This document shows, one piece after another, positions 1 through 63,688 of a DNA stretch of 64,000 nt. Position 1 is the first letter of the stretch; the number at the start of each line of letters is the position of its first letter. A model generated the notes under the pieces. The model was not told the DNA's origin. It searched no databases and was given only the letters and a program-made list of their open reading frames with translations. The position numbers and the translations under genes were made by a program. The DNA is from a virus: positions 1-64,000 of IMG/VR virus record IMGVR_UViG_3300028920_000057. The stretch is one strand, 5' to 3'.

Positions 1-1352
1 ACATCACCATTACTTGTATCAAAATAAAGATCTCCAACTCTGCCAAAGGTATCGTCGGGAACACCATAATCGGTATACCAATATGTTCCATCAGCTCCAT
101 CAGCTCCATCAGCTCCATCAGCTCCAGACGATCCTGTGATACCTATTGGTCCTTGAGGTCCGGTTTCGCCCTGTATGCCTTGTGCTCCCGAAGAACCGGT
201 TAAACCGATAGGACCTTGCGGTCCCGTTGCTCCATCTGCGCCCGAAGATCCTGTTGGGCCTGTTTCTCCCTGTATTCCCTGAATCCCTTGTATGCCTTGT
301 GGCCCCTGAATGCCTTGGATACCTTGAGGGCCCTTGATGTTTCCAGAATAAATCCAAGCTCCAGGGTCGTCTCCTGCGCTAGATGAACTGGCTAGAATTC
401 TTTCATAGATATCACCAGTATCCCTGTCAAGGTACAAATCTTGGGCAATACCAATATCATCTGTAGGAGCACCCGTTCCCACATACCACAACGTACCTCG
501 CTGCCCGTCTGCTCCGTCAAGGCCATCTTGACCATCAGCGCCCGACGAACCAATGGGGCCGGTGGCGCCAGTTGGACCTATCGGGCCTTCCGGTCCTTGT
601 GCTCCCGAGGAGCCTGTTTCACCCTGTGGACCTTGAATCCCTTGTGGGCCCTGGATACCCTGCGGCCCCTGAACGCCTTGAGCTCCAGACGAGCCGACCG
701 GACCTGCTGGTCCTATAATATTTGTCTGATAGACCCATGAGTTTGACCCTCCCGAAGAAGAGGACATGGCCAATTTATAATAAACATCACCGGTAGAATT
801 GTCTAAATATAAGTCATAGATTTCGCCGACATCATCTGCTGGTTCTCCAGATCCTACATACCATTTGCTTGAGCCTTCAAATTCCAGATCGTCTATTCTA
901 AGATCGAGCGCATTTATCTGATTCTGAAGACTAACATCTGTAGATTGAAGATCTTCTATATCAGAAATGACTTCATCTAATGAGTCATTAAGAGCAGATA
1001 TGGCAGTTTGCAATGCGTCAATATCATTGCGCTCTGTTAATAGCATTATTACATTAGTCGCGCCATCGACAATATCGTCCGCAGTAATCGCCCCGTCATT
1101 TATGGCTTCTATGATAGTATCGTTAAGATTTGTGGTAAGTGCCAATAGCTTTGTCAGCGCATCAGTAAGGGCGGATTCAATAGCCTGAATGCGTGCATTC
1201 GTAATCGGCTCATCGTCTGTCACGTCTCCCGTATTCTGCACACCTCCTACCCGAGCAAGAGCATCAAGCATTTCCTGGGTAGTAGGCCTGTTTATGATCG
1301 CATCTTGAAGCTCAAGGACGCTTTGTTCAAGTTGTGAATTAGTCATTACCAT
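1..1352 (-). CDS. Collagen-like tail/whisker fibre protein (partial, runs off window start; absent from supplied ORF track)
   Basis: Manual translation from ATG at 1352 (upstream CGAGGA SD-like) gives MVMTNSQLEQSVLELQDAI..., open to position 1. It has an N-terminal coiled coil, then repeated WY.G.G.P.DD.G...DLY(L/F)D...GD(V/I)Y knob units alternating with Gly-X-Y runs of 24 (498-713) and 27 (90-332) triplets. Confidence 0.9.
   Translation of the reverse strand, partial: MVMTNSQLEQSVLELQDAIINRPTTQEMLDALARVGGVQNTGDVTDDEPITNARIQAIESALTDALTKLLALTTNLNDTIIEAINDGAITADDIVDGATNVIMLLTERNDIDALQTAISALNDSLDEVISDIEDLQSTDVSLQNQINALDLRIDDLEFEGSSKWYVGSGEPADDVGEIYDLYLDNSTGDVYYKLAMSSSSGGSNSWVYQTNIIGPAGPVGSSGAQGVQGPQGIQGPQGIQGPQGETGSSGAQGPEGPIGPTGATGPIGSSGADGQDGLDGADGQRGTLWYVGTGAPTDDIGIAQDLYLDRDTGDIYERILASSSSAGDDPGAWIYSGNIKGPQGIQGIQGPQGIQGIQGIQGETGPTGSSGADGATGPQGPIGLTGSSGAQGIQGETGPQGPIGITGSSGADGADGADGADGTYWYTDYGVPDDTFGRVGDLYFDTSNGD
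88..126 (-). repeat. 9-bp tandem repeat (CCATCAGCT x~4) encoding (Gly-Ala-Asp)n in the collagen segment
   Basis: Directly visible: ccatcagctccatcagctccatcagctccatcagctcca. Confidence 0.85.
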
Positions 1353-1383
1353 GGGATTTCCTCGGTTGATTCACTGTGTGTAA

Positions 1384-1434
1384 ATTATATCTCTAATACT
1401 CTTTCTATTATATCGTTAAACTTGCTTTTGCCAA
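1384..1434 (-). promoter_or_regulatory. Putative sigma70-like promoter for the collagen fibre gene
   Basis: Minus strand reads TTGGCA (1429-1434), a 16-nt spacer, then TATAAT (1407-1412). A second TATAAT lies at 1384-1389. This is one of the few real intergenic gaps in the operon. Confidence 0.5.
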
Positions 1435-1448
1435 TGGGTATGTTTCGC

Positions 1449-4079
1449 TTAACTAACCACACATCCGGCAACTTTAAATTCTTCTACTTCCCAATATATT
1501 GAATCACTCGTGATAATTCTCCAATATCTATGAGATCCTACATCGGGGGTGTCTGCCATAAATGCCTTTGTATGTCCTCCTGCCTGTTCGCAATAAAAAC
1601 ATTCCGGCACAAGTCCCGACTTAGCCGTACTCCAATCTATTGCATTGTCGCTATATTCTAAATCAATAGACGAGGTACTATTGCTTCCAGTGTCATATTC
1701 CTGAGCAATTGTAACACTCAATACCTTTTGAGCAGAACCAAGGTCTATTCCAATCCATGGATTAGTATCATCTAAGGCTCTCCAGAATGTACTGGTACTT
1801 CCATCTGTAGCATTAATGGGACCATGAGTCCTTGATCCAGAACTCGAAGAACTTGGAAGAGAATATTCGTCGAATCCGGTCCCATTGAAATAATCTTGAC
1901 AAATCCTAAAGGTTTCAGGACTACAATCACTTACATCAAGAGGTATAATCGACGTGTCTCCGCCACAATCTGTCCACGCAGTATCGCAATTATTTCCATA
2001 GATATTAAGCGCCTGTGGCGTCACTCCATCTGCAACAAGCTTGGTTGGACGAGGAGATACGTCGGGATCTGCCCACAAATAATCACAACATCCAATATAG
2101 TTCGGATAATAATAGGCACACGAAGCGAATCCCGCCCATGTTGGCTCATAATATTTCCAATAAATCCCACCAGAAAGATCCATAATAATAAAGGCACAAT
2201 CATCGGTATAATCGCTGACAAATATGGTGCAATAACGCCCCTGATCGGCAGACCAGTCATCCATAGGATCAAAGGCATAACCATATTCATCTTGATTGGT
2301 ATCAGATCCGGTGCTGTCTACTAGATCTGCTAAAACATAACCCTGATAATCTATATAGCTACTTCCTTCCAATTCGGTATCACATAATTTATCTTCGGCA
2401 CAATCGTCTACTTCGCCGCAATCATGTGTCGGCCCGTCTAATGTTGTTGTTTGTCCGGTATCACAATAATCCTCATTAAGGACCAGAGCGTCTATGTCTG
2501 CCTGAGTTTCTACGTCAGAAGCGCTTCCTCCCGGCATTGCATAGACAGACACGCCGGAACCATCTGGCTCAAAGTTTGTAAAGTATAGACAATCATGCTC
2601 CGAATCATACCAATACTTTTGAGTTGGTGGATATTCTTCATATTCAGACCCATTTTGTTCTGGACATGGATATTGATTACTGTTATAGCACTTTTTCCCG
2701 AGATCATCTTCAACCCAGCAGTCTTGATACCATGTACCATAGCCATATACTGTGGGAGGATAATCGTCAGCAAAAGAATCTCCATAAGAATAAGATAGAC
2801 TATAGCAATCTGTATTCTCAAAACGTTCAAGAGAATTATTATCATAATTCGTACTATTGAAATCTGTTACACATTGGGCGCACGCTTCTACAACACTACT
2901 GCTGGATTCTGAAGAACTAGATTCCGATGAACTGGATTCACTAGAGCTGGAAGATTCCGAACTAGAAGATTCAGACGAACTACTCGACTCCGAACTACTC
3001 GATTCTGAGGAGCTACTCGACTCTGAGCTTGATGACTCTGATGAGCTAGATTCAGAACTGCTTGATTCGCTTGAACTAGATTCTGAAGAAGACGACTCTG
3101 AGCTACCACTTGACTCAGAGCTGGATGAAGATTCAGAGCTTAAACTGGATTCTGAACTACTAGACTCTGACGAACTGCTGGATTCAGAACTAGAGCTTGA
3201 TTCACTGGAGCTGGACGATTCAGAGCTTGAGCTGGACTCCGAGCTAGATGATTCACTGGAGCTGGACGACTCAGAGCTTGAGCTGGACTCTGAGCTACTT
3301 GATTCACTGGAGCTGGATGACTCAGAGCTTGAGCTGGACTCTGAGCTACTTGATTCACTGGAGCTGGATGACTCAGAGCTTGAGCTGGACTCCGAGCTAG
3401 ATGATTCACTGGAGCTGGACGACTCAGAGCTTGAGCTGGACTCTGAGCTACTTGATTCACTGGAGCTGGACGACTCAGAGCTTGAGCTGGACTCTGAGCT
3501 ACTTGATTCACTGGAGCTGGACGATTCAGAGCTTGAGCTGGACTCCGAGCTAGATGATTCAGAAGATTCCGATTCACTACTTTCACTTGATTCTGAAGTT
3601 TCAGAAGTAGACAACGAACCAGAACCAGGCGCTGCACCAGACGAAGTTGGCTGATGCGCAGAAGAAGAGCAGGGCTCACATTCTGGACATGGCCATGGTT
3701 CTTGGAACGGACCTCTTTGTCCATCTTCTCCGGCTGGCCCCTGATTTCCGTCAGGCCCAGCAGGTGCCACATAAGTTTCTGGTTGAGGAGGACCCCAAAA
3801 AAGCACGGCAGAAATCACTCCATCGTTTCTCGTATCCTCAAATAAATCTATGATCTGATCGGGGGTGATGTTGTGCTTCTGGATATAATCTTCTACGGGA
3901 CTGAAGTTCGCTTTTGGAACATAATCCCACTTCTTAACTTTGATCAAAACCGGATTGGGAGGAGTCTCATAGAGAGGCGTATTCCAAACATGTCTCCCCT
4001 GTAATAGCTCTTTCAGCTCATCGATCTTAGCCTGTAAATCTAGGCAATTACATTCTTCAGAACTACTGGAACTTGTCAT
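1449..4079 (-). CDS. Modular fibre/adhesin: N-terminal trimerisation domain with short collagen, ~240-aa Ser/Glu linker, Cys/Tyr/Asp-rich region, C-terminal F5/8 type C (discoidin-like) domain
   Basis: 876 aa. GPDGNQGPAGEDGQRGP collagen stub; (SE-SSSS)n tract. The C-terminus NATDGSTSTFW...PWIGIDLG...LEYSDNAIDW...RYWRI...WEVEEF matches the discoidin/CBM32-like pattern. Confidence 0.75.
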   Translation of the reverse strand: MTSSSSSEECNCLDLQAKIDELKELLQGRHVWNTPLYETPPNPVLIKVKKWDYVPKANFSPVEDYIQKHNITPDQIIDLFEDTRNDGVISAVLFWGPPQPETYVAPAGPDGNQGPAGEDGQRGPFQEPWPCPECEPCSSSAHQPTSSGAAPGSGSLSTSETSESSESSESESSESSSSESSSSSESSSSSESSSSESSSSSESSSSSESSSSESSSSSESSSSSESSSSESSSSSESSSSSESSSSESSSSSESSSSSESSSSESSSSSESSSSSESSSSESSSSSESSSSSESSSSSESSSSSESSSSESSLSSESSSSSESSGSSESSSSESSSSESSSSESSSSESSSSESSSSSESSSSESSSSSESSSSESSSSSESSSSESSSSESSSSVVEACAQCVTDFNSTNYDNNSLERFENTDCYSLSYSYGDSFADDYPPTVYGYGTWYQDCWVEDDLGKKCYNSNQYPCPEQNGSEYEEYPPTQKYWYDSEHDCLYFTNFEPDGSGVSVYAMPGGSASDVETQADIDALVLNEDYCDTGQTTTLDGPTHDCGEVDDCAEDKLCDTELEGSSYIDYQGYVLADLVDSTGSDTNQDEYGYAFDPMDDWSADQGRYCTIFVSDYTDDCAFIIMDLSGGIYWKYYEPTWAGFASCAYYYPNYIGCCDYLWADPDVSPRPTKLVADGVTPQALNIYGNNCDTAWTDCGGDTSIIPLDVSDCSPETFRICQDYFNGTGFDEYSLPSSSSSGSRTHGPINATDGSTSTFWRALDDTNPWIGIDLGSAQKVLSVTIAQEYDTGSNSTSSIDLEYSDNAIDWSTAKSGLVPECFYCEQAGGHTKAFMADTPDVGSHRYWRIITSDSIYWEVEEFKVAGCVVS
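3199..3555. repeat. 51-bp tandem repeat, 7 copies, encoding a 17-aa Ser/Glu unit
   Basis: GATTCACTGGAGCTGGA recurs at 3199, 3250, 3301, 3352, 3403, 3454 and 3505 (exact 51-bp period), flanked by degenerate Ser/Glu-coding sequence at ~2897-3600. Confidence 0.95.
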
Positions 4080-4474: not shown

Positions 4475-5229
4475 AAATCGGGTTTATAAATCCACGGAGT
4501 AACCGTTGCGCTGTCTGTTTTATCGAGACCATATTTCGTTACCAATGCTTTGGCAATAGGCTCTGAGGCTGCTCTCAACTTTATGGTATTTATCTGATGA
4601 TTATATGTTAAAAGATTGATAGCTCCATAGGAAAATCTTTGATCTATCTTAGGGCCTAGAATGGCGACGTTCATATCTAGAATCATAATATCCAGAAGAG
4701 CTTCCTGTACTGGCATCTGTATGTCATTTAATATTGCTATCCTTCTTGCTTTCTTTAGATGTTCAAGAGCACGGAGAGAGGCAGAAAACCATCGTTGATG
4801 ATCTTTAAGCATAGGCTCATGATCACAAGCAAACATAATTAGATAGCCGGAATACATTTCGTGCATGAATTCAATATCAGCAGTTATTTGCTTTTGTCTG
4901 CAGCATTCATAGGCAACATCAGACAATTGCGCGATAGCAGGAACAACTCCGAGCTTGAGAGGAATGGCAATATCAATAATAGAATACAGAATAAACAAAG
5001 CCGTATGAGGATGCCATTCTTTATAGCGAGTCTTTAGGTAGCTCTCTAGTTTAAGTTCTTTAATTCTGCACATTTCAAGTATGGCTAGAGCAAATACATG
5101 GCAATCAGAAAGCCCCAAGGCCTTTGCGCTAGCTCTCTTCTCGTAGATATTCAATATATTGAGATATGTTGCCTGAAGATTCTCTATCATAGGCATCACT
5201 TCTGGCAGGCATTTATTGTTGTCCTTCAT
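4459..5229 (-). CDS. Hypothetical protein (256 aa, helical-looking; possibly a fibre assembly factor)
   Basis: Long ORF coupled to its neighbours by overlaps; no recognisable motif. Confidence 0.6.
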   Translation of the reverse strand: MKDNNKCLPEVMPMIENLQATYLNILNIYEKRASAKALGLSDCHVFALAILEMCRIKELKLESYLKTRYKEWHPHTALFILYSIIDIAIPLKLGVVPAIAQLSDVAYECCRQKQITADIEFMHEMYSGYLIMFACDHEPMLKDHQRWFSASLRALEHLKKARRIAILNDIQMPVQEALLDIMILDMNVAILGPKIDQRFSYGAINLLTYNHQINTIKLRAASEPIAKALVTKYGLDKTDSATVTPWIYKPDLCMKL

Positions 5230-8200
5230 TATTGATCAGCCTCTGCTTCTGTTGATTTTTCAAAAGACCTTTCCACAAAAATACTAAACGCTGTCTTGTG
5301 GATAAATTTAAACTCATGAGTATGGCTCTTAAGCCATTCTGCCCCTTTGTAGAGCTCATTAACATCTGATGCTAGAATACGGTCACCCTTTTCCAGGATA
5401 GTATTTAGTTCAGAGTCGCGTACCGTGCTTTTAACCTGACGCACATTATATGTATCTGCCGACGCACTTGTGCCTGAAGTAAACAAGGTCTTAATAGATT
5501 CACCGTCAACCGGTTTGTCGGTTTCGCCCGTTTCATGCTTAAGGTCTACGCCTGCGAACTGATAGATCGTGCCGCTCTTTTTCCCATGCTTTGAGAAGTC
5601 TTTCTCGATAGGAGTTAACGCCTCGACACGTTCTGATCTATTCATAAAATAAGAGACAGGAGAAGCCAGCCTAGATCCGGCCTTTTCGGTGTCCGAACTT
5701 CCTTCGTCCGTTCTTCTTAATGCCGCATTAAAAGATTCAGGAGTGCCGGGAACATCGCCTAGCGAGGCTCTTGTGTCTCTATCTACAAGTATTACGCTGT
5801 GATTCTTTAGAGTAAATCCATGAGCAAGATGATCTCTAACTTCTCGAGACTTACCTTCTATTACGATAGATTTAAAGTCAAAGCCACTGGCGTGAGAGAG
5901 TTCTGTTGTAGATTGAGGCGCCTCAGCTTCTTTGTATTTTCTAAAACCTTTATACGCATCAGTTTCTGCAACCTCCCACCACTCAGGCGTCTTCCCGTCT
6001 GTCAGGTCGTCTTCGAGAAAGATCTTAACTCCACGATATTTGGGACTTTCAGAATCTCCAAACGTATCTACACATACAACGTCATGATTCGTAGTGGTGC
6101 CATCCGTATAATGAACTGTAATTATTCTTGGTCCAATATAAACGTCGAGACTTCCTCTGGCCCCTATATAATCGTAAGGCACAGGCTCAAGCCCTCCTCC
6201 TGACGAGGAAGACGTCATCGCAGCAATACAACTCCCCTCCGGCTGAGCATTACCGCTCTCGGTAATCGGATATTTGCCCGTGATATCAAGCCACGAACTA
6301 TCTATCAAATAATCATCTTCGTCTTGGACGTTTTCATCTGTCAAATGCTTTTTGTATCTTAAGGGAGAGTCACCTCCTATAGCATCAAGAATGTCGTTGT
6401 CGGCATCCATATTTAAGGCCATGATAGGTAAACCAAGAGAGACAACGGCATCTCCAGTAACATATTGAGTTCCCTCATTAATATCAACCCTGTATTCACC
6501 AAAGCGCTGTGAATTAATACATTTAAATCTGTCTAAATAATCGGCATCTTCTCTGGTGGCTTTCAATTCGTCATCAAGTAGATCTAATCCGTCTTCTCTT
6601 ACTGTTTCGATTTGGCCCTTGGTTGCAGGAGCCGTATCTAATATATCCATAATAGTTTCATAGTTGTCTATTGCAGTTTCAATACCTACCTGCATGATAT
6701 AAGCTTCGTTCTCGCTCGCATCGAGCTGAGAGATGATAGCTGTGATACCATTCTCTTCATACTTGTATACAGTAGAAGCTATTGCAGAAGAAGGAGTTTC
6801 GTCGCTGACATCTTCTGCTACCTGAATAGCGTCAGATCCTACTACAGATTTAATTCTGTAAGGCTCATCTCCGTTGTACCCCGGAACCTTCAATAGTTGT
6901 CCAGGCGCCAATCCTTGGGTCGTACTGACTACCAGTGTATTGTTCGTTTCACTAAAACTTTGAACATTAACTGTAGATGTACCAACCAGCTTCAGTTCAG
7001 ATCTTCCGAATGCCAGATATGAAGACCCATTAAGATTTACGGAAAGCTCCACTTCGTGGAGGTCGTCTTCCTGGTCTGAAGAGATAACAACATCTCCGCA
7101 TAGATGAAGAATTAAGTTACCTTTTCTGTCTGAGACAGCAGCATGAACGGTCCACATGGAGTCCGTATCGGATAGTGCTCTGTCGTCAAATTCTCTATAC
7201 AAGCTCGGTTCTATCCAGATTTCAACCAAGTCTCTCATAGACTCTTTTAATATTTCTGTATTCCAGGATTCGTTTCCATCAGATTGTCCCAGGTCATCTA
7301 TTTGAAAGTTAACGTTTCTAAAATAATACCTACTGTAGTCTATGTCTGTCTGTATTGGTTCGTTATTTATCAGTCCCCGTCCATCATTGTCTCCACCTGT
7401 TCTTGCGATTCCTTTGGGTCCATCTGAATCATAATAACCTTTGCCATCACCAACGTCCCCAAACATTACCATTGGGGCTACAGAGTTGAATACTTCTCCA
7501 TCTATTCTGGCAAAAGTATTGAAGAACAGGGTCTCTTTCTTTGTTTTGCCACCCCAATCGTGTTCGAGATAGAAATTAGGTAGTTCAGAAAAGGCGTGGG
7601 GAGATAATGTGGTACACAAACACCCTGGTCGACCCATAGATAATACGTAGGCACGTCGACGATATTTATTTGCGGCAGAGTTAATATTGCTTAGCCCCTT
7701 GGGGATAAAGGATATACGCAGATATCCTTCATTTCCAAAGAGCCTCTCTTTAATGTCGTAGACTGCTGCTGGGTAATAAGCGTTTGGATTATAGACCGGA
7801 CCGATAGGATAGGAAGTAGGAGCATCATCGTCGTTATCAAGAATGTTATATACTTCACCATCAAATATCGTTTCGTCAAAATCATGGCTAGGATGGTCGA
7901 AGGGTACAAGCTTCATTTCTTGCGCCAAGACAGGAGTGTCTGCAAGGATCCTGGTTCTTCGAGAAACCTCCTGTCCTACGTACGATGTATTCGTAAGCTG
8001 AGTTCTGTATTCTTGAGCAGCATCATTGAACCAGGGATCTTCAGATAGCTTTGTCAAGTTTACCATGAGATCATGCTCTTCTGTAGCGGTAGGCGTCTCC
8101 GACATATAGGCTGGGTATCTCTCGTCTGTAAAGTCGAACGTTTCAAAGTCTTGATAGAAGACATAGTTATCCAGATCAGAAAAGCTCGAGCCATAGTACC

Positions 8201-9422
8201 AGGAGTGCTGAAGCAGAGGGGTCTCCAATCCAATAACATTCCCACCATACAGATAACCTGCATTACCAATAGTGCTTATCAGGTCTGAGACATAATATGC
8301 CGGCAATAGATCTTCATACTCAGGATCAATATCGAAAGCAGTTCCTTCTTCGCTGTCTTTCGCATTAGTTCCATCCAGACTCTTGAAGTCAATAGTTTGT
8401 AGAACCATATCGTGAGTATGATTTGCATAAGCCACCAGAGCTCGCCTTAATTCATTGATGTGTTCGGCTTGTACCGGGGTCGCCTCGGCGCCCGACGGCA
8501 TTGTTAAGCCCCAGTTATTCGAAAGGTTGGCGCGGAGCGCTGGTGTAAGATTTCCAATCCAGTTAGGGGTCATGTCAGGATAAACGCGCTTTATAAATGG
8601 TATAGTATATTTTGTCGCAGCGTTTTCGTTGGTGATTTTATATCCCGTAAACATATCTGGATTAAACGGTTTCTCTGTAGCCCACTTTGGAGGCTTGGTA
8701 TAATCTATAAAGTGCGATCCTCTAACTATCGTTGAATAGCCCTTAAATTCTTCTTCGGAAGTAATCGCTCCGATATACTGACGAGGATGTCTTTGACCTC
8801 CATCACCATATCTGTTGCGCCACTGAATAGTTTTATCATACCAATTATGACTACCTCTATGATTGTGTGCGCTATGTTTCTTTCTGTATGTTTCTTCTTC
8901 GTTCTTGCCCACGAAAGAATAGCCGGCCATATCCTGATATACAAAATGAATTTTATGAACATGACGATAATTCAATTCACAAATACGTCTTAATTCATTT
9001 ATTCTATTGGCAAGAACGAGATATTGTGCGGCTCGAGTTCTTTCTGCCGCAGTATCCATTGGAAGAGTATCGTTTAGAAGTGATTCCGGGCAGGACAATG
9101 CATAATCCCCCTCCGTCCCATATTGAAAAGTTTCCTGGACTAGAAGTTTAGGAGAAAATGTAGAATCGAATTCTTGATTCACCTTAAACAGATTCTCTGG
9201 AATAGAATAGTCCCACTTCCTGTCTTGAGGTATTACGGTCTCATCGTTAAGCATTTCCATTATGCCTTCTGTCGTCAAGGCTCTGGTATCTCCGAGTATG
9301 GCTCTCTGTGTTACTATCTGCAGGATAGCATTAGCTTGATCGTTGCTAGGGTATACTAATACCGGAGACTCGGTCCAGCCGATACCTTCGGTCTCTAAGT
9401 CTTGATAAGAAAGACTGGTCAT
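5229..9422 (-). CDS. Large tail fibre / baseplate-associated structural protein
   Basis: 1397 aa, acidic. Three copies of an A..(I/V)NEL......HxH motif (ANRINELRR..RHVH, AEHINELRR..NHTH, ASDVNELYK..SHTH) resemble trimeric fibre elements. One TSSSSGGG tract. Confidence 0.65.
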   Translation of the reverse strand: MTSLSYQDLETEGIGWTESPVLVYPSNDQANAILQIVTQRAILGDTRALTTEGIMEMLNDETVIPQDRKWDYSIPENLFKVNQEFDSTFSPKLLVQETFQYGTEGDYALSCPESLLNDTLPMDTAAERTRAAQYLVLANRINELRRICELNYRHVHKIHFVYQDMAGYSFVGKNEEETYRKKHSAHNHRGSHNWYDKTIQWRNRYGDGGQRHPRQYIGAITSEEEFKGYSTIVRGSHFIDYTKPPKWATEKPFNPDMFTGYKITNENAATKYTIPFIKRVYPDMTPNWIGNLTPALRANLSNNWGLTMPSGAEATPVQAEHINELRRALVAYANHTHDMVLQTIDFKSLDGTNAKDSEEGTAFDIDPEYEDLLPAYYVSDLISTIGNAGYLYGGNVIGLETPLLQHSWYYGSSFSDLDNYVFYQDFETFDFTDERYPAYMSETPTATEEHDLMVNLTKLSEDPWFNDAAQEYRTQLTNTSYVGQEVSRRTRILADTPVLAQEMKLVPFDHPSHDFDETIFDGEVYNILDNDDDAPTSYPIGPVYNPNAYYPAAVYDIKERLFGNEGYLRISFIPKGLSNINSAANKYRRRAYVLSMGRPGCLCTTLSPHAFSELPNFYLEHDWGGKTKKETLFFNTFARIDGEVFNSVAPMVMFGDVGDGKGYYDSDGPKGIARTGGDNDGRGLINNEPIQTDIDYSRYYFRNVNFQIDDLGQSDGNESWNTEILKESMRDLVEIWIEPSLYREFDDRALSDTDSMWTVHAAVSDRKGNLILHLCGDVVISSDQEDDLHEVELSVNLNGSSYLAFGRSELKLVGTSTVNVQSFSETNNTLVVSTTQGLAPGQLLKVPGYNGDEPYRIKSVVGSDAIQVAEDVSDETPSSAIASTVYKYEENGITAIISQLDASENEAYIMQVGIETAIDNYETIMDILDTAPATKGQIETVREDGLDLLDDELKATREDADYLDRFKCINSQRFGEYRVDINEGTQYVTGDAVVSLGLPIMALNMDADNDILDAIGGDSPLRYKKHLTDENVQDEDDYLIDSSWLDITGKYPITESGNAQPEGSCIAAMTSSSSGGGLEPVPYDYIGARGSLDVYIGPRIITVHYTDGTTTNHDVVCVDTFGDSESPKYRGVKIFLEDDLTDGKTPEWWEVAETDAYKGFRKYKEAEAPQSTTELSHASGFDFKSIVIEGKSREVRDHLAHGFTLKNHSVILVDRDTRASLGDVPGTPESFNAALRRTDEGSSDTEKAGSRLASPVSYFMNRSERVEALTPIEKDFSKHGKKSGTIYQFAGVDLKHETGETDKPVDGESIKTLFTSGTSASADTYNVRQVKSTVRDSELNTILEKGDRILASDVNELYKGAEWLKSHTHEFKFIHKTAFSIFVERSFEKSTEAEADQ

Positions 9423-9424
9423 TA

Positions 9425-23623: not shown

Positions 23624-24053
23624 TACTTAACCTCACTAAGGCTTTTGTTATTTGATCTAATGCTTCAGAGACAGTTGAAACTTGCTGAATGCCCAGTTCG
23701 GGAGCAAGCTCAAGAAGCTCCTCGTTAAACTGATAGCCAGCTTGGCCTATCAATCCAGAGAGAGCATCCCATACTGTCCTGGTTTTATCAAATTTAATAT
23801 CCTTCGCATTTACTTGACCATAGAGGAACCGATGAAGATCCTCCAAAGCCTGCTTCAAAGTCATATTCTTAAACATAGGAGACATAACCTTGATTGATTC
23901 TGCAGTAATTGGCGGCTGTTTTCTAGACTCCGTCTTCTGCATTGGCTTATTTTCAAGCCTTACGATTCGCTCTATTATGTCGGTCAATACTTTATTTAAC
24001 GGTATGCCTCCGTACTGAAATACGTCGACCCCTATTTTCTTCTGTTTATTCAT
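23538..24053 (-). CDS. Small fibre/collar-like structural protein
   Basis: Three A..I.......T(L/V)..AL..L-type repeats (TAESIK..TLKQALEDL, NAKDIKFD..TVWDALSGL, STVSEALDQI), typical of phage fibre shafts. Confidence 0.55.
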   Translation of the reverse strand: MNKQKKIGVDVFQYGGIPLNKVLTDIIERIVRLENKPMQKTESRKQPPITAESIKVMSPMFKNMTLKQALEDLHRFLYGQVNAKDIKFDKTRTVWDALSGLIGQAGYQFNEELLELAPELGIQQVSTVSEALDQITKALVRLSNEIKNVGNRISPSVAPGRVFPEAEVLEE

Positions 24054-27930: not shown

Positions 27931-27943
27931 TTATCTCTCCGTA

Positions 27944-35049: not shown

Positions 35050-35058
35050 TTTGATCTC

Positions 35059-56093: not shown

Positions 56094-56101
56094 CGTATCT
56101 G

Positions 56102-56749
56102 TTATTGAGGAAGATTCGCGTTTCCTGCAGAACTTGCCGAAGAATACTCGTCGGCAGTTTTGCCTTGAGGATTCCAATGGACAATTTCACGAGCCAGGAA
56201 GCTACACGTTTCATCCGTCGTGATGTCGTCAATTGAGATACCCGCACCATTATTCATCAGTTCAACGCCACGGATTTCCATCCCTGTCCTGACGCCATAT
56301 TCATTGGCGGCAGAAATTACGACGTTAAACGGCAGAATCTGATCGAAATACCAGTTAGGAACCTGTCTAGTTACAAGCCGCTGATCAAAGCTGCCTGAAT
56401 TTAACTGACCCGGATCTTTCTTCCAGTATTTATATCCAACAGTGCTAGCATTGAGCTCGCCAGTTTGAGCAAGCGGATTTACGTTGCCGCCAGTCAAAGT
56501 ATTGAGTTCATGCAACAGGGCGGATCTATCGAACACAGCGAACACAAGTGCGCCTGCGATCCCTCGCTTGCCGCGAGAGAATGTCCGGGGATTAGCATAT
56601 CCCATTGTGTAAATGGGGACCTTTTCCCTTGTCACAGAGTATGACAATCCCTGAAGTTCGCCAACCCATTTGCCGGCGAACGTCACGACCATGTCTACAC
56701 CCGAGAACCCGTTATAGGTCCTGTTGAAGTTTACATTATTATCAGCCAT
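56102..56749 (-). CDS. Major tail tube protein
   Basis: Immediately after the sheath; strong GGAGGTGA SD; GELQGLSYSVTREKVPIYTMG...PRTFSRGKRGIAGALVF; followed by a terminator. Confidence 0.85.
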   Translation of the reverse strand: MADNNVNFNRTYNGFSGVDMVVTFAGKWVGELQGLSYSVTREKVPIYTMGYANPRTFSRGKRGIAGALVFAVFDRSALLHELNTLTGGNVNPLAQTGELNASTVGYKYWKKDPGQLNSGSFDQRLVTRQVPNWYFDQILPFNVVISAANEYGVRTGMEIRGVELMNNGAGISIDDITTDETCSFLAREIVHWNPQGKTADEYSSASSAGNANLPQ

Positions 56750-56760
56750 GGTTCACCTCC

Positions 56761-58608
56761 TTATGATTTACTTAAATCAAGTTCAACTAGAACCTTGACG
56801 ATTTCGAAAGCAGGTACGATGACTGCTTTTACGCTGACTTGGCCAAGCACGGCCTGATCCTCGGTTTGTTCAAGCGAGAATTCATACCGATTAATAAAGC
56901 CATTGCCATCATCAACCAACTGTCTAAACATGTCGTCCAGATCGGCTCGCATACCATTGAGGCGGGCAGAATTGCCAGCTTCGCCAATATACGGATCGGC
57001 AACGCGCCGTATCAAATCCATAACCTTGGCCGTAATACGGACGGTGGTTAGGTTTGTATAGTCGCTCCGACGATACTGATCGATATTGTAGGCGGACGTA
57101 ATCCCTCTTGCCACAACGTATCCCCGACCAGGCTTTCTGATGGTGATAACGTAGCGTGCTGCAACAAGGTCGTCTGCGTCTGAACGCTTAATGTCTCTGA
57201 TTGACTGGAAGCCATCAATAGACTTATTGGTTGTAGAGCTGTTTTCAGGCAGCCTTAGAACCAGCGCCAGGTACTCACCCACGCCATTAGACACGTACGT
57301 GCGTTCACTCGGAGCCCCAATCAGGCGCAACGTCTGATCGCCATATGTGTTGCTGGAAACACCTTCCATGGCGCCAAGGCTAACCCATCGACCGAGGTCG
57401 ACTTTGTTGCCATGAGCATCCACGATGTCGCCAGTAGAACCTCCGGGATTTGCACTTGCACCCCCGGTGGCCTTCCACATACGATAAGTCGTAGGAACCA
57501 GATCGGATTCGCCAGCCGTATGGCCATCGAGTCCAGAGCTATTAGTGAAGTCCTTCGCATCGTCAATAAAATCGTTCCATTCGGCAAGAGTAATGCCGAA
57601 GGAATCCGTAGTTGAGGGATTATAACCTCTGAACGCTCGCCGGAAAGCGGTTTGCATCAGTCCTCTAACGGTATTGAATTCTGTTTCAGTACCATCAAAG
57701 ACTTCTACAGCGCCCAAAAGCTCAGTTCCCTCTATAGGCGTTTCTGTCACAGTTATGATGGCGGCATCGTCATCATAGCTTGCGACATAATAATCTCTAC
57801 TACCTGTGGAGTAATAGACGGTTATTTTAGCGCCTACATATGGAATACCCTCGCCCTCGAAATCTCCCGAAGATGAAGATGAGTTCGCAAGCAACGTAGA
57901 ATCAATTACGATCTGCTTGGTAGCAGCGTCAATAGAATCAATGTTGACCTGAGCAATGCTAAGCTTATTAAAATAAGACGTAGCAAATGCGTCACGGAAT
58001 TGCTTGAATCTGATAGGAAGTCGGCCAATGGCTGAAATGACAGCGTCATTTTCCAGGCTGGCATCTTCACAGAAGTTAGCAAGCTGATATGCGAAATCAC
58101 CCGAATCACCATCGTAGGTGCGAGTGGTATTATCTGAATCGTATACCTGAGTCAGGTCTGCCCGAAGATCAGCATAAACACCTGGGATATAAACAATATC
58201 CAAGGTATGATTAAGCAGATTCTCAAACGTTTCCTGAAGAGCAGTGTATCTTTCAGTTTCGGTCACAATGTGACCGTTGAAATTGGAGTTGCCGCAGTAA
58301 AGAAAACCTTCCTCACCCCAACCATGAGCGATCTTGACAAACTCTACCGTAACACCCTTTGAGACCTCCGCAATAGCTTTTGTAAGCTCGCTCGGCTTAG
58401 TGCCGAAGTCGTCGTTGATCGCAGGGTGAAACGTGGAATATCTGTCAGCGCTCGAATCCGTTAGGAGCACTGGGTCATTAAGGGGTATGTCTGCAGTCGT
58501 TACGCCCAATACCGTAATTTTGGTACCGGGAGCAGGACGTTCAACACGAAGATTCCCGTCATTCAGCGACACCACAGTTCCTGGTAAATTAGGGAATTGT
58601 GAAGTCAT
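56761..58608 (-). CDS. Contractile tail sheath protein
   Basis: N-terminal FPNLPGTVVSLNDG; C-terminal TTVRI......IRRVADPYIGE...GQVSVKAVIVPAFEIVKV sheath signature. Confidence 0.9.
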   Translation of the reverse strand: MTSQFPNLPGTVVSLNDGNLRVERPAPGTKITVLGVTTADIPLNDPVLLTDSSADRYSTFHPAINDDFGTKPSELTKAIAEVSKGVTVEFVKIAHGWGEEGFLYCGNSNFNGHIVTETERYTALQETFENLLNHTLDIVYIPGVYADLRADLTQVYDSDNTTRTYDGDSGDFAYQLANFCEDASLENDAVISAIGRLPIRFKQFRDAFATSYFNKLSIAQVNIDSIDAATKQIVIDSTLLANSSSSSGDFEGEGIPYVGAKITVYYSTGSRDYYVASYDDDAAIITVTETPIEGTELLGAVEVFDGTETEFNTVRGLMQTAFRRAFRGYNPSTTDSFGITLAEWNDFIDDAKDFTNSSGLDGHTAGESDLVPTTYRMWKATGGASANPGGSTGDIVDAHGNKVDLGRWVSLGAMEGVSSNTYGDQTLRLIGAPSERTYVSNGVGEYLALVLRLPENSSTTNKSIDGFQSIRDIKRSDADDLVAARYVITIRKPGRGYVVARGITSAYNIDQYRRSDYTNLTTVRITAKVMDLIRRVADPYIGEAGNSARLNGMRADLDDMFRQLVDDGNGFINRYEFSLEQTEDQAVLGQVSVKAVIVPAFEIVKVLVELDLSKS

Positions 58609-58619
58609 TTATTTTCTCC

Positions 58620-59654: not shown

Positions 59655-59928
59655 TTAGCAAATTCTTAGTAGCGTTTGTTATGATTGACCTAATATCCTT
59701 AATTGTATCCGCATAGTGTCTAGCGTCAACCTTGAGGTTATTGGCCAGGTATTTGAGCTCTATTTCTCTATAGTCTTTATAGGAAAAGACAAAAACGACG
59801 CGAACTCCTCTTGGATTAGCATCCTTCGGAGGCGTCTTTTCTATTCTGAGAGGCTCAAGTCCGCTCGTGATACATGCGGCGACTTTTTCAATATCGCCAA
59901 CCCTGATTTCTCCCTTGTTCTTGGCCAT
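59647..59928 (-). CDS. Small DUF5659-like protein
   Basis: D...VAA....G......EK......VVFVF.........Y....L.VD...Y...IK.IRS.I pattern recalled for this family. Confidence 0.55.
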   Translation of the reverse strand: MAKNKGEIRVGDIEKVAACITSGLEPLRIEKTPPKDANPRGVRVVFVFSYKDYREIELKYLANNLKVDARHYADTIKDIRSIITNATKNLLNE

Positions 59929-61955
59929 TAGCTAAAATATTCCGTATATTGTGGTAATTGATAATATCGGCTGGCTCCCTTAATTGTCGGGAACTGCCAT
60001 CCCTGTTTTGTTGATAGATATGTATAGGTACGAGTCCTGAAATTGGGCTTTGTCGTTCTGTGCATACTTCCTTTGATTGCAACCACAAATTGTACCCCTG
60101 TACCGCATAGTACCTTAAGTGCCCGTCGTGCACTTGCGACTTCATCGACAATGCCGTCTTCTTTAGGATTGCGCTTAGTGTTCGAGGCCCTGGCTCCTAC
60201 TCTGACGTTATAATCTCCAAGTCGTTTCGAAACCCCTCTCGAGACCGCCGTATCAATATAGGTCAAATCATAGAAATCAAGCAAGGTTTTCTTATATGCA
60301 TATGTGATAGCATCTTCCGGCGGTTCACATAGGTCATATGACATACAGGCTAATTTCCAGGCTTCTATAGAATTCTTCAGAATCATCCTGAGAATCTTCT
60401 CGTCAGAATGTTTATAATTCAGCCCTTCAAGTTCAAGGCGGATAAGATCAATATCAGAATAGATAGGGAACAAACCGGTCATAAACCATTTATGAAGTTC
60501 ATTATCCGTAGTCCAGACCATAACGGCGCCATTATCGTCCGCCTGTGACCTCAAGCCAGATTTGATGTAGATGTTAACATCTGTATTCAACGTAGGACCT
60601 TCATATGTGACAGTAATGCTCGACGAACTCGACACTTCTGGTTCTGAAGATTCACTATCGCTCGAACTTGAAGACTCAGGAGTAGGAGTCTCTCCGTCTT
60701 CTGCGGAGGAAGAAGTATCTTCAGTAGACGAAGTAGATATAGACGACGTTGACTCAGAGCTGGAGGAAGATTCTTCTTCAGCCTCTTCTTCTCTTGGATC
60801 TGTGTTGGAAATATAATATCCCCATGCCGTGCCTTGAACCTCTTGTGTGTCATCGCACCCAGCGATAATGGTTACAGAAAAGTTCTGGTTTGGCGTAATG
60901 GCTATTTCTTCGACTACATAATTGTCATTCGTACTAATACAACCACTATCAAATAAGGTTTGGCCAAGTTGATGAACGATAAATTGATCTTTCACCTTGA
61001 ACGAACGATACTTCAAATAGGCAGTTTCAGAAGCTCCAAAGTTGTATTCTCTTGTTTCTTCTCCTACAACGCCTTCTCTGTAGATGTTGTATTCAGTAAC
61101 TGTCGTAGTTTCGGTAGGGCCAGAAGGTAAAGAGGATGAAGATGAAGACGAACTGGATGCCTCTTCATATTGCTGGGCCTCCCAGTCTGCGAGCGTCCCC
61201 GGATAAGTAATAAGGACGTCATTCCCTTGAATATAATAATTAACATCAGGAAATAACTTGTCGTTTCTATTATCCAGACAAAATGCCGACGTTCCTTCTG
61301 CTGCATAAGAATCTTCAAAGTCTTCTACATCATAGACCATTGCCCTGATATCTACCATAGGCTTATGCTCTAATATGATATATTCTCTGGCAGAAGCCAG
61401 ATCTACTGGACGATTGAAGGTTAATCGAATACCATTCTCGGCTATAAACGCAGGAGAAACAAGCATCTCGCCATGCGCAGGTTCCATATCTACAAATTCT
61501 AAAGGAATCGTCTCTACTGCGATAGGTTGGTCGTCAATGACAACATAGACAGTCTCTGTCTCTTGAGGCGCATTTTCTCTAGGACTTGACGCAACAACCG
61601 CAGAAGGAGCCCTGACACCAGTAGTAAATAAAATAGTTTGTGTTTGTAGAACGGAATTGCCGTCTGTGTCTTTAACCTCTCCTACAAACTGGCTGAGATC
61701 TTTACCTGAAATAATGATCTTATAACCTGTTTGTTCATTGAGAGATAATGCAGGAAGAACCTTTACCACGTTGCCAGAAGTAACATAGCTTGCACGAACT
61801 GGTGTAGAAGTATCACGATTCAATAGCGCTATAGTGCCGCTATTAACAGAGGCTGAATCAATATCCTTATTAAAAGTTAGCGTAATAGTGTTTTCTATCT
61901 GAAAGTTGTTGTCTCCACTCGTAGGGGAACTTCTAACAAGAATAGGAGTTGACAT
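59928..61955 (-). CDS. Head-tail adaptor-like protein fused to Ig-like (Big_5/SbsA-type) domains with Ser-rich linkers
   Basis: N-terminal SSP..G.......ITLTFNKDID.ASV...P...L...T.YKI.I and a second IRLTFNRPVD unit. C-terminal PIYSDIDLIR...SKRLGDYNV resembles gp6/gp15-type adaptors. Confidence 0.65.
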   Translation of the reverse strand: MSTPILVRSSPTSGDNNFQIENTITLTFNKDIDSASVNSGTIALLNRDTSTPVRASYVTSGNVVKVLPALSLNEQTGYKIIISGKDLSQFVGEVKDTDGNSVLQTQTILFTTGVRAPSAVVASSPRENAPQETETVYVVIDDQPIAVETIPLEFVDMEPAHGEMLVSPAFIAENGIRLTFNRPVDLASAREYIILEHKPMVDIRAMVYDVEDFEDSYAAEGTSAFCLDNRNDKLFPDVNYYIQGNDVLITYPGTLADWEAQQYEEASSSSSSSSSLPSGPTETTTVTEYNIYREGVVGEETREYNFGASETAYLKYRSFKVKDQFIVHQLGQTLFDSGCISTNDNYVVEEIAITPNQNFSVTIIAGCDDTQEVQGTAWGYYISNTDPREEEAEEESSSSSESTSSISTSSTEDTSSSAEDGETPTPESSSSSDSESSEPEVSSSSSITVTYEGPTLNTDVNIYIKSGLRSQADDNGAVMVWTTDNELHKWFMTGLFPIYSDIDLIRLELEGLNYKHSDEKILRMILKNSIEAWKLACMSYDLCEPPEDAITYAYKKTLLDFYDLTYIDTAVSRGVSKRLGDYNVRVGARASNTKRNPKEDGIVDEVASARRALKVLCGTGVQFVVAIKGSMHRTTKPNFRTRTYTYLSTKQGWQFPTIKGASRYYQLPQYTEYFS

Positions 61956-62221: not shown

Positions 62222-62241
62222 AATATGCCCCTCTTTATATG

Positions 62242-62269
62242 AAAAAACCCCTGGCCGAAACCAGGGGTT
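62242..62269 (-). terminator. Rho-independent terminator after the major capsid gene
   Basis: Minus strand AACCCCTGG-TTTCGG-CCAGGGG followed by TTTTTT. Confidence 0.9.
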
Positions 62270-62293
62270 CTTAATATCGCACTACATAGTGGA

Positions 62294-63688
62294 TTAGGTA
62301 GCGCTGGAACTGGAGCTGTCTTCAATTCCCGCAGAAATTGTCGGCAGTTCACCGTTTGAGATGTCCCAGGTAACCTTATCTTCCATGAAGTAGGCTTGGT
62401 CGATTGCGATGTTCTTAAGAACACGCGCAGCTTTACCCTGGTTAACGTTAATCATGGAGTACCGTTCCCGGAACTTCATTTTATAAACGTCAACCCGAGG
62501 ATCGTTCCAGTCTTCAGTGTAGAGGTCTTCGTCGACGACGAGCAAACCTGCCTGATCGGCCTGAAGCAGAACGATGTCGGTGACCCACTTGCTCAGAGTG
62601 GTGTTCCAGGTTACAGGAGCATAAGGCGTAACAACAATGTTGAAGCCTAAGCCACCATAGCCAGGTACCTGGAATGCGAACGTTGCATTGGCGGCTCCGC
62701 CAACTGAAGTACCGGAAGTGGCACCCAGTGCGACAGATTGACCAACGTTCTGTCCGTAAGGTACGTTAACACCAAGCTGAGGAGCATAGACGGATCCACC
62801 CGTAGGAGGAGTCCAGAATGCGCCACCTTGACCACGGAAGAACTGTTCCCGAAGGATCGGATCTTTCGCGAAGATTGTCCATGCAAGCGGATGACAGACA
62901 AGCGTGTTGAGGTGCCAGCCTTCTTGCAGGGCGTCAATGTAAGCGTCAACCAGATCGTCAACGATAAGGGTCCAGTTACCATTACCATTGATATCACGAC
63001 CTTTGGACCGGCGAGCGCCGGAGGCAATGTTGTCGATATAGGTAGAACCCAGGTTGAAGATAAGGTCGGAAGCTTTCTTTTCTTTATGACGAATCAGAGC
63101 CTGACGCGCCTGACGGGCATGCAGGTTAACGACGTCAAATGCGGAATAACGGATAGCTTCTTCAGTGAAGTTTACCGCGATACCGACTTTCCCGATCGTG
63201 GCGGTTACTGAACCGCTGTAATCGAGAGCCAGTTCGGGGTATTCTTCGCCTTCTGCCATATCGAGCTCGAGGTTACCGGCTGCGCCTACGGCGGGGAAGG
63301 TGATTGAAGTACCGTTTTGGAATCTTACTTGCGTAAGCATCCGAGTAAGCGGGTTGTCCTGCGGAAGAGGTTCCCGAACCACGTTGGCGACAACGTGAGG
63401 AATCAGGTTCCGGTATTCAGCAGATGTGACAGCATCGCTCGTTTTGCTGGCTAATTCGACTGATTTGTCAATCAGATCTGGAAGCTCAACATGCTTGTCA
63501 AGCTCACGGTGGTAACCGTTATCTTTCCAGATTTGAGTCCACAGAGCAAGGCGGTCCCGAACTTCCTGTTTTTCAGTCTTCGGTTTAGCTTTGTCGTCTG
63601 CTTTTTCGATCTGGCCTTTGACAACAGCGTGCAGTTCTTCCATAACCTTATCAACTACAGCCATAGCATCTTTTTTTACATTATCCAT
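62294..63688 (-). CDS. Major capsid protein (HK97 fold)
   Basis: AEGEEYPE......ATIGKVGIAVNFTEEAIRYS.FDVV.......QAL.RHKE and LVCHPLAW motifs; GGAGG SD; followed by a terminator; ends IEDSSSSSAT. Confidence 0.9.
   Translation of the reverse strand: MDNVKKDAMAVVDKVMEELHAVVKGQIEKADDKAKPKTEKQEVRDRLALWTQIWKDNGYHRELDKHVELPDLIDKSVELASKTSDAVTSAEYRNLIPHVVANVVREPLPQDNPLTRMLTQVRFQNGTSITFPAVGAAGNLELDMAEGEEYPELALDYSGSVTATIGKVGIAVNFTEEAIRYSAFDVVNLHARQARQALIRHKEKKASDLIFNLGSTYIDNIASGARRSKGRDINGNGNWTLIVDDLVDAYIDALQEGWHLNTLVCHPLAWTIFAKDPILREQFFRGQGGAFWTPPTGGSVYAPQLGVNVPYGQNVGQSVALGATSGTSVGGAANATFAFQVPGYGGLGFNIVVTPYAPVTWNTTLSKWVTDIVLLQADQAGLLVVDEDLYTEDWNDPRVDVYKMKFRERYSMINVNQGKAARVLKNIAIDQAYFMEDKVTWDISNGELPTISAGIEDSSSSSAT

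Follow-up and report, generated by a model that had tools for sequence, protein, structure and literature searches.

The particles of phages are commonly regarded as naked protein, and to our knowledge experiments have demonstrated glycosylated virions for just a few mycobacteriophages. In Gram-positive bacteria the serine-rich repeat (SRRP) adhesins (GspB, Fap1), which are served by an accessory Sec system, carry Ser-X dipeptide repeats glycosylated in the cytoplasm by GtfA/GtfB, and the bacterial autotransporter heptosyltransferases (TibC, AAH) likewise O-glycosylate a surface protein at many Ser positions in the cytoplasm. For the mycobacteriophages Che8, Corndog and Myrna, virion O-glycosylation with known phage glycosyltransferases and a proposed shielding role is reported, with glycans at the C-terminal ends of capsid and tail tube subunits (Freeman et al., 2023, Cell Host Microbe 31:1216, as cited in PMC12619734 and PMC11256854). 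Uninterrupted polyserine occurs as linkers in secreted carbohydrate-active enzymes of marine Gammaproteobacteria (Saccharophagus degradans and Teredinibacter turnerae; PMC2386152, PMC2699552), where it joins catalytic and binding modules. Literature searches on polyserine in phage capsids returned no relevant match.

The window analyzed here, a stretch of 64,000 nucleotides, belongs to a contig of 88,896 bases (~89 kb, estimated 46% complete) from an uncultured phage of the contractile tail type originating from marine sediment. Like the mycobacteriophages, it has a Ser-bearing C-terminus of the major capsid protein (MCP), Ser near the end of the tube protein and subunits assembled in the cytoplasm; unlike them, it has at least 12 tagged proteins, including sheath, baseplate and fibers, with tags in internal loops and long stalks, and no glycosyltransferase was seen in the 89 kb (46% of the genome). 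The capsid and tube proteins of Che8 end in ...TGS and ...DGS, respectively, with no poly-Ser, so the acceptor in the present phage would have to be of a different form. The SRRP adhesins are resembled by the 876-aa protein p876, whose Ser-rich stalk of ~250 residues is combined with a terminal binding domain (discoidin) and to which cytoplasmic Ser glycosylation would apply, while neither an accessory Sec system nor GtfA/B was found (no GT1/GT4 match in the contig). With the polyserine linkers (PMC2386152, PMC2699552), the tracts share pure Ser, mixed codons, the joining of domains and marine origin, in contrast to which many of the runs here are terminal or placed in a loop within one domain, and only virion proteins carry them. 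The modification proposed here would share with that by TibC/AAH its cytoplasmic setting and its many Ser residues on a surface protein; no GT9 or heptosyltransferase-like gene is present in the 89 kb, and the sugar genes lead to UDP-uronic acid and not to ADP-heptose.

Distribution and codon usage of the serine runs

The runs of at least four Ser numbered 69 and were spread over 12 of the 32 minus-strand structural proteins, whereas per-protein shuffles (n = 1000) gave 5.3 on average and never more than 13; 29 were left when p876, a repeat protein, was excluded. Any other amino acid formed 0–1 such runs in the same protein set. The positions of Ser runs reported in an earlier sequence-only reading, which had suggested a Ser tag for coat modification throughout the virion, were all reproduced. 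An internal control was provided by the following region:

33589..53155, minus strand: four basic proteins of 486, 2801, 1857 and 1372 aa, tape-measure and hub region, no Ser run

As the same reading had claimed, the 6,516 aa encoded here contained zero runs of four or more Ser, the chance of which is about 1e-5 with the 29 runs placed at random and about 0.013 when counted by tract-bearing protein. The 2801-aa protein matched an endolysin-type PHROG. The other 25 kb of the contig had a single run of at least four Ser, located inside the core of an epimerase and also present in its homologue from the viral contig L031. This differs from an equal frequency of tracts in non-structural proteins, which had been named in advance as the outcome that would speak against the tag.

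All six Ser codons were used in the tracts, in approximately the same proportions as elsewhere. Only three tracts (3196–3561, 21101–21217 and 27100–27143) coincided with DNA tandem repeats, while more than 20 did not. Functionless low-complexity expansion by replication slippage or tandem duplication is disfavored and very improbable: it would fit these three repeats, including the array of 7.2 copies of a 51-nt unit in p876, and the break of the assemblies at the repeat of the 658-aa protein (p658), but not the more than 20 non-repeat tracts with all six codons, the restriction of runs to Ser (0–1 for the others), their absence, except for the run in the epimerase core, from internal and non-structural proteins adding up to about 14,000 aa, or the conservation of Ser identity under synonymous divergence described below.

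Head, tail tube and sheath proteins

The tagged proteins of the head and the tail tube/sheath region were as follows:

62294..63688, minus strand: MCP, 464 aa, HK97 fold (PHROG major head protein), C-terminus ...EDSSSSSAT with the run SSSSS at 62303–62317
59928..61955, minus strand: 675-aa protein (p675), N-terminal Big_5 Ig-like domain (Pfam Big_5, 1e-14), probably a head decoration protein; S9 at 61131–61157, acidic Ser-rich tracts at 60612–60785 (residues 391–448)
56761..58608, minus strand: tail sheath, 615 aa (PHROG tail sheath, 2e-42), SSSSS at 57868–57882
56102..56749, minus strand: tail tube-like protein, 215 aa (PHROG 9206, common to a paralogue at 55417–56046), SSASSA at 56126–56143

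The AF2 model of the MCP (pLDDT 75) matched HK97, encapsulins and many phage capsids with a Foldseek probability of 1.00, and its residues 452–464 had a pLDDT below 50. The SSSSS loop of the sheath lies inside a clade-specific insertion domain (residues ~197–339); the sheath model was poor overall (pLDDT 51) and its local confidence pattern alone was used, with residues 242–252 falling below 50 within a beta domain of pLDDT 62–89. The low pLDDT of the MCP tail and of the sheath loop is consistent with disorder of these segments in the models. Mapping of the tracts on AlphaFold models, proposed earlier as a check of surface exposure, yielded low confidence for these two tracts, while their facing outward is what we infer from how HK97-fold capsids and the insertion domains of sheaths are generally built. 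Neither p675 nor the sheath profile had a match in PDB sequence searches. The previous label of "adaptor" for p675 is replaced here by that of a probable head decoration protein with an N-terminal Big_5 domain. The tube protein lacks runs of at least four Ser; its motif is located seven residues before the C-terminus and is followed by GNANLPQ, correcting the previous statement that the tube ends in YSSASSA. Both the capsid and the tube subunits have a candidate Ser/Thr acceptor at or near the C-terminus, as is the case in the mycobacteriophages.

Baseplate-region, fiber and other tagged proteins

The remaining tagged proteins were as listed here:

28698..31916, minus strand: 1072-aa baseplate-region protein, no family match; S10 at 30870–30899, S5 at 29295–29309
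27944..28684, minus strand: 246-aa coiled-coil-like protein (p246), 35-residue Ser/Glu/Asp C-terminal tail at 27947–28051
24046..27930, minus strand: 1294-aa protein, seven Ser runs in three Ser-rich segments (27040–27159, 26488–26589 and 26338–26400) plus a run at 25600–25611
20248..22224, minus strand: p658, 92-residue Ser/Glu tract at 21004–21279, SSSS at 20758–20769
17785..20244, minus strand: 819-aa protein (p819), S11-N-S6 tail at 17788–17841 after a conserved C-terminal domain, SSSS at 19417–19428
9425..10630, minus strand: 401-aa protein, single SSSS at 10376–10387, a weak case (per-protein shuffle P = 0.02)
5229..9422, minus strand: 1397-aa protein (p1397), single SSSS at 6201–6212, a weak case (per-protein shuffle P = 0.03)
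1449..4079, minus strand: p876, fiber/adhesin-like, C-terminal F5/8 type C (discoidin) domain (Pfam F5_F8_type_C, 7e-14)
3..1352, minus strand: collagen-like fiber protein (Pfam Collagen, 1e-25), truncated at the end of the contig; two repeat copies of one module each hold SSSS, at 753–764 and 378–389

The label "wedge", previously attached to the 1072-aa protein, found no family support. The N-terminus of p876, MTSSSSSEE (Ser run region 4059–4073), is followed by a short collagen-like stretch, its stalk consists of (SSSS(S)E)n over ~250 residues at 2880–3623 and precedes a Cys-rich region, and a further SSSSS is present at 1839–1853. Part of the p658 tract (21101–21217) is the DNA tandem repeat mentioned above. 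Reads aligned over 17–32 kb showed a break of the source assembly at this repeat and revealed that the sample also contains another strain, which is diverged; they gave no clean signal on whether tract lengths are polymorphic.

The tags of MCP, p819 and p246 and the N-terminal tag of p876 are terminal, and tracts at such protein extremes cannot be linkers; together with the sheath run, a loop within one insertion domain, they agree with the placement at termini or loops that had been read from the sequence. Runs joining two folded domains, as polyserine linkers do, were found in p876, p675 and p658. The main rival explanation, quite possible although we lean away from it, is that the runs act as unmodified hydrophilic bristles or spacers. 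Being flexible, strongly hydrated and in many cases acidic, they would increase solubility, reduce sticking of the particles to sediment or to each other, or space the fiber domains, much like the polyserine linkers of the marine Gammaproteobacteria. The long tracts of p876, p675 and p658 between recognizable domains are linker-like, the phage comes from marine sediment and polyserine linkers are established in some marine bacteria (PMC2386152 and PMC2699552); furthermore, no modifying enzyme is present in the 46% complete contig. However, a run of five residues links nothing when it stands at the C-terminal extremity of the MCP or within the sheath loop. Disorder or hydrophilicity alone would not call for Ser only, and Thr, Gly, Asn, Gln, Pro, Asp and Glu formed no more than 0–1 runs each. 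Such spacers would also leave the Ser identity kept through synonymous change and the sugar-nucleotide genes, both described below, in need of another reason and another use, respectively.

An acidic residue was present within four residues upstream in 20 of the 29 runs compared to 45% expected (p about 0.008), in agreement with the acidic lead-in claimed before. This context, the SSSSEEE and DSSSDSS motifs in p246 and p658 and the marine sediment habitat would suit tags that are phosphorylated on Ser by a kinase of the host or the phage, or that bind divalent cations or mineral surfaces directly, in the manner of caseins and phosphophoryn. We consider such tags improbable: several runs (those of the sheath, the fiber and p1397) have no acidic context and a six-frame search of the contig (46% complete) detected no Pkinase-family gene. 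We know of no precedent for phosphorylated phage virion tags of such kind.

Conservation and gain of the tracts among related phages

A metagenome scan yielded one close fragment, L017 (75% nucleotide identity), in which the tracts are kept in place despite synonymous changes in most of the Ser codons; in the S9 of p675, eight of the nine codons were changed synonymously. By this comparison, the Ser tracts are under purifying selection at the protein level. Together with the mixed codon usage, this upholds the earlier claim that Ser is selected in the protein and does not result from slippage. Selection for disorder and hydrophilicity alone could also explain the conservation and the recurrent gain, as would be expected of bristles or spacers.

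A C-terminal SSSS was present in seven of the nine MCPs with at least 54% identity and in none of the 83 more distant ones. Scans of IMG/VR and of GTDB genomes with an alignment of the MCP clade gave either distant untagged relatives or no match. Within the clade, the sheath homologues had Ser tracts at 4–5 different insertion sites. Most homologues of the ~100-aa C-terminal domain of p819 end within a few residues of the domain, while a poly-Ser tail follows it in P0104 (82% identity) and P0107 (32% identity) and is missing from P0105 and P0106. Compared to the distant relative G001, which is Ser-free at the corresponding sites, four tracts are insertions or extensions: the MCP tag and the p246 tail are absent there, p675 residues ~250–450 are an insertion relative to a 501-aa homologue, and the insertion domain is missing from the 488-aa sheath. 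Insertion or extension with respect to homologues, as had been anticipated, is seen for these four tracts, with variable sites in the sheath. The distant relatives G001–G004 had 0–1 Ser runs in 54–90 kb. These comparisons support repeated, independent gain of the tags in related phages. Selection, Ser specificity, confinement to virion proteins other than the internal ones, placement at termini or loops and repeated gain are the behavior expected of a portable tag.

Sugar-nucleotide genes and search for a modifying enzyme

Two adjacent genes were found ~15 kb beyond the window, upstream of the structural genes and in the same orientation:

genome positions 78585–80788: TviB-like UDP-N-acetylhexosamine 6-dehydrogenase and UDP-uronate 4-epimerase-like gene

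The best NCBIfam match of the dehydrogenase was TviB NF011729 (491 bits, E 3e-147), below the equivalog cut-off of 592 bits, while the nucleotide-sugar dehydrogenase subfamily TIGR03026 was passed (369 vs 189.8). The strongest PDB match of the epimerase was 5U4Q, deposited as dTDP-glucose 4,6-dehydratase, and its best relative among named epimerases was the Bacillus cereus UDP-glucuronate 4-epimerase (6ZL6/6ZLA), ahead of WbpP. The nearest relative, on its contig of 109 kb, retains the dehydrogenase at 82% identity, while for the more remote Ser-tagged clade members no contig could be shown to carry the pair; TviB homologues in genomes, at about 50–56% identity, belong to many phyla and therefore give no clue to the host. 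The adjacent dehydrogenase and 4-epimerase genes resemble the Vi-antigen (TviB, TviC) and WbpO-WbpP synthesis of UDP-GalNAcA, in contrast to which the TviB score is below the equivalog cut-off and genes for a polymerase, a transferase or export were not found in the 89 kb. Among the other viral contigs examined, only L031 had such a pair; it is located there inside a Wzx-type cell-surface polysaccharide cluster, and L031 has no poly-Ser virion proteins. As an ordinary cell-surface polysaccharide kit, the pair could serve host-surface remodeling or DNA modification instead.

No glycosyltransferase was found with Pfam, PHROGs and NCBIfam among all ORFs at 64–89 kb, and a six-frame HMM search of the whole 89-kb contig gave no GT2, GT4/GT1, GT9 or Maf; PF01075 (Glyco_transf_9, BAHT-type) had no match at E ≤ 1 in the 88,896 bases and Glycos_transf_1, expected for GtfA/GtfB, had none in the contig. 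Since the contig is 46% complete, absence of the enzyme from the genome cannot be concluded. The prediction of a modifying enzyme outside the window was thereby supported in part: the sugar-nucleotide genes are there, while no glycosyltransferase, kinase or Maf-type enzyme was found in the 89 kb. Extension of the contig was achieved neither with an exact 28-mer from its end nor with a 1044-aa early protein. No tRNA genes were found, and for two proteins of unknown function (308 and 847 aa) the ESM Atlas offered nothing beyond viral clusters without a name or structure matches at noise level.

Proposed function of the serine tags

Ser runs at presumably exposed ends and loops, in combination with the phage's own predicted activated acidic sugar, make a sugar coat on the particle the leading reading. 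We favor O-glycosylation acceptor tags as the function of the runs, with a probability of roughly 0.45. According to this proposal, the clade would have repeatedly inserted homopolymeric Ser segments, short to long and in many cases with acidic residues around them, into outward-facing virion proteins, where they would occupy flexible ends, loops at the surface and stalks between domains. The recipients would be the proteins of capsid, head decoration, sheath, baseplate and fibers. The Ser residues would then be O-glycosylated in the host cytoplasm, during or before assembly, by a transferase whose gene belongs either to the half of the phage genome outside the contig or to the host. The TviB-like dehydrogenase and the uronate 4-epimerase of the phage would supply the activated sugar, UDP-N-acetylhexosaminuronic or UDP-galacturonic acid. 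Such a particle would be covered by a hydrated glycan coat of negative charge. We infer here that the transferase exists, that the Ser residues are modified and which sugar they receive.

A more specific and broader version is doubtful: a clade of large marine-sediment myoviruses would have portable poly-Ser tags in exposed loops and termini of more than 12 virion proteins, O-glycosylated with a GalNAcA/GlcNAcA-type sugar from their own TviB/TviC-like enzymes, resulting in a Vi-like anionic coat from capsid to fiber tip, and would represent one instance of a widespread, so far unpublished strategy of virion glycosylation in phages.

Sister phages carry tags of one kind at different loops within a single domain of the sheath, which is direct evidence of selection for the tag's own properties and not for its position, and this holds whichever chemistry applies. 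If homopolymeric Ser tags are general glycan acceptors, glycosylated phages would be recognizable from sequence alone, and the surface met by host defenses, grazers, antibodies and minerals would be carbohydrate and not protein, while the tags themselves would offer a ready-made handle for engineering of phage surfaces.

Contig and structural module

The contig is of the linear class, 88,896 bases long and 46% complete by the CheckV estimate. The window has genes on the minus strand only, and together these make up a large myovirus's structural module; the nearest cultured phages are two jumbo myoviruses, Moorella MTATph1 and Bacillus 0305phi8-36 (~30% identity of the major capsid protein, MCP).

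Main features of the structural module and of the contig beyond the window
62294–63688, minus strand: MCP
59928–61955, minus strand: 675-aa protein (p675) with a Big_5 Ig-like domain
56761–58608, minus strand: tail sheath
55417–56046 and 56102–56749, minus strand: two tube-like paralogues, both matching PHROG 9206
33589–53155, minus strand: four large basic proteins in tape-measure and hub position
35059–43464, minus strand: 2801-aa protein in hub position, with an endolysin-type phrog_20474 match (3e-38) near residues 2550–2630
31980–33125, minus strand: baseplate wedge subunit
~30 kb, minus strand: baseplate and fibre genes, with a discoidin-domain protein and a collagen-like fibre at the end
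78585–80788 of the genome (L002:15585–17788), minus strand, beyond the window: nucleotide-sugar 6-dehydrogenase (418 aa) and SDR epimerase (329 aa)

Some labels needed correction. Since the tube-like paralogues are encoded behind the sheath, their PHROG 9206 annotation, major head protein, looks wrong. The "adaptor" of the sequence-only reading was misnamed, the protein having an Ig domain, and no family support was found for its wedge label at 28698–31916. A 284-aa protein amid the tail genes (22769–23623, minus strand) is very basic (19% Lys+Arg) and has an N-terminal signal peptide of lipoprotein-like type, the last residues of which are the lipobox LGGC.

The phage DNA is present in marine-sediment metagenomes. 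Run X1, the probable source sample, contains a second, diverged strain, represented by a 7,244-base contig, mostly <90% alike, that spans parts of the tail genes at 22238–28290; the main assembly breaks at the Ser/Glu repeat of the 658-aa protein p658 (~21136–21151).

Serine runs in virion proteins

The reported Ser runs in at least 12 structural proteins were reproduced: 12 of the 32 window proteins contain 69 runs of at least four Ser, against 5.3 on average and 13 at most in per-protein shuffles, and 29 runs are left once the 876-aa repeat protein (p876) is set aside. Among the amino acids such behavior is limited to Ser, with a single run each for Gly and Lys and none for the others. The internal basic proteins at 33589–53155 are free of Ser runs over 6,516 aa, as had been claimed, while the rest of the contig (~7,400 aa encoded) has one, inside the epimerase core, and a homologue on another contig has this run as well. 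An acidic residue precedes the run in 20 of the 29 cases, more often than by chance (p ~0.008), and this part of the initial description also holds. The tube motif SSASSA, in turn, is not terminal as stated, lying seven residues short of the end.

The mixed codon usage was likewise borne out: all six Ser codons are used in near genomic proportions, and DNA tandem repeats account for only three of the tracts. Set beside these codon data, neutral expansion is very improbable and takes the last place among the four readings that were ranked.

Conservation and repeated gain of the tracts

A metagenome fragment from a close relative, L017, is collinear with the contig at 53–69 kb with 75% nucleotide identity and has the MCP, sheath and p675 tracts retained in place, although most of their Ser codons were changed synonymously (in the S9 run 8 of 9 codons, with no amino acid change). 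In a survey of 91 MCP homologues, the C-terminal SSSS(S) was found in six of eight proteins with at least 54% identity (with the window, seven of nine clade members) and was absent from all 83 more distant proteins. Of seven sheath proteins in the clade, six have Ser tracts; these are insertions in a single variable region, at four or five distinct sites of the alignment. The C-terminal end of the 819-aa protein (p819) is a ~100-residue domain, within a few residues of which most homologues stop; a poly-Ser tail follows it in the window protein and in relatives with 82 and 32% identity, and is missing in two other full-length homologues.

Aligning the tagged proteins to homologues, as had been proposed, gave the same picture for the distant relative G001 (36% MCP identity), which lacks the MCP tail, the p246 tail, p675 residues ~250–450 and the whole sheath insertion domain (~197–339). 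The four distant relatives have 0–1 Ser runs each in 54–90 kb, which for G002 is true after allowing for TAG recoding. The latter (IMGVR_UViG_3300033072_000678, L120–L123) is probably a TAG-recoded phage, its long-ORF coverage rising from 0.62 to 0.96 with TAG read as sense. Scans of IMG/VR and GTDB found no further representatives of the tagged clade. These comparisons show the tracts to be under selection and to have been gained repeatedly.

Location and predicted exposure

Five tracts are terminal or nearly so (C-termini of MCP, p819 and p246, the p876 N-terminus and near the tube C-terminus), those of the sheath and fibre modules are of the loop type, and p876, p675 and p658 have them in long inter-domain stalks. 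The AlphaFold2 model of the MCP, built with a 60-sequence alignment, has an HK97 fold (pLDDT 75, Foldseek probability 1.00), with pLDDT <50 in the tag-bearing last 13 residues. The sheath model was poor overall, except for a confident small beta domain at 212–305, in which the Ser loop is the low-confidence segment. From established knowledge we infer an outward orientation for the C-termini of HK97-fold shells and for contractile-sheath insertion domains, which would place the MCP tag and the sheath loop on the outside; of the claimed exposure, the placement at termini and loops was seen directly. In the second-ranked reading, a serious contender, the tracts would be bristles and spacers that are hydrated or acidic and carry no modification.

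As read from its sequence, p876 (1449–4079, minus strand) has the domain organization of a stalked adhesin: the ~250-residue (SSSS(S)E)n stalk, which derives from a tandem repeat of 51 nt, is accompanied by a short collagen-like segment, a region rich in Cys and, at the C-terminus, an F5/8 type C (discoidin) domain. Collagen-like GXY repeats are also present in a 132-aa protein with a Cys-rich end (4076–4474, minus strand) and in the terminal fibre protein (3–1352, minus strand). The latter is cut off at the contig end and is made of repeated modules, each a beta-rich unit with collagen after it.

Sugar-nucleotide genes and the search for a transferase

The dehydrogenase/epimerase pair lies ~15 kb beyond the window, in late-gene orientation and upstream of the terminase; the two genes overlap by 43 bases at the head of a long minus-strand gene block. 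The best NCBIfam match of the dehydrogenase was TviB (491 bits, below the equivalog cut-off of 592 bits), and the nearest relative retains the enzyme with 82% identity on its 109-kb contig. The epimerase had 5U4Q as the best PDB match and the Bacillus cereus UDP-glucuronate 4-epimerase as the best named epimerase relative. The predicted product of the pair would be a UDP-(N-acetyl)hexuronic acid of the GalNAcA or GalA type. Directly downstream is a class-3 lipase gene (Lipase_3, 7e-22; genome 77463–78239, L002:14463–15239, minus strand).

The expected modifying enzyme outside the window was matched only in part, by these sugar-nucleotide genes: ORF-based scans and six-frame HMM searches of the 89 kb (46% complete) found no glycosyltransferase, protein kinase or Maf-type enzyme, the 88,896-base contig has no gene of GT9, the type of the bacterial autotransporter heptosyltransferases, and two unexplained neighboring proteins gave no lead. 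Phospho-Ser or cation-binding tags, to which the acidic leads and the negative kinase search are both relevant, are an improbable reading. In the one other viral contig whose pair context was examined, the pair is part of a standard Wzx-type surface-polysaccharide cluster and poly-Ser proteins are absent, so the pair alone does not imply virion glycosylation. That contig (L031/G005, IMGVR_UViG_3300013739_000011) may represent host DNA or the edge of a prophage; its complete cluster around the TviB/TviC-like pair includes a PglF-like dehydratase, an aminotransferase, Bac_transf, a PglD-like acetyltransferase, GT4 and GT2 transferases and a flippase.

Possible function of the serine tag

The results strongly support a portable, Ser-specific tag under protein-level selection, one that was added to virion proteins many times over and is kept away from internal and non-structural proteins. 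This part of the coat-modification proposal stands, while the chemical modification itself is plausible but unproven. Putative O-glycosylation acceptors are ranked first, with a probability of roughly 0.45, because Ser identity is strictly kept, because tags are found at termini, and because of the phage sugar-nucleotide genes and the mycobacteriophage precedent, where glycans on capsid and tube C-termini are described (Freeman et al. 2023, as cited in PMC12619734 and PMC11256854). The known acceptors of mycobacteriophage Che8 are short ...TGS or ...DGS ends, in contrast to the poly-Ser found here; if glycosylated, this phage would have a different acceptor design, spread over many more proteins. 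Virion glycosylation as such is known, whereas homopolymeric Ser as its acceptor, if true, would be new.
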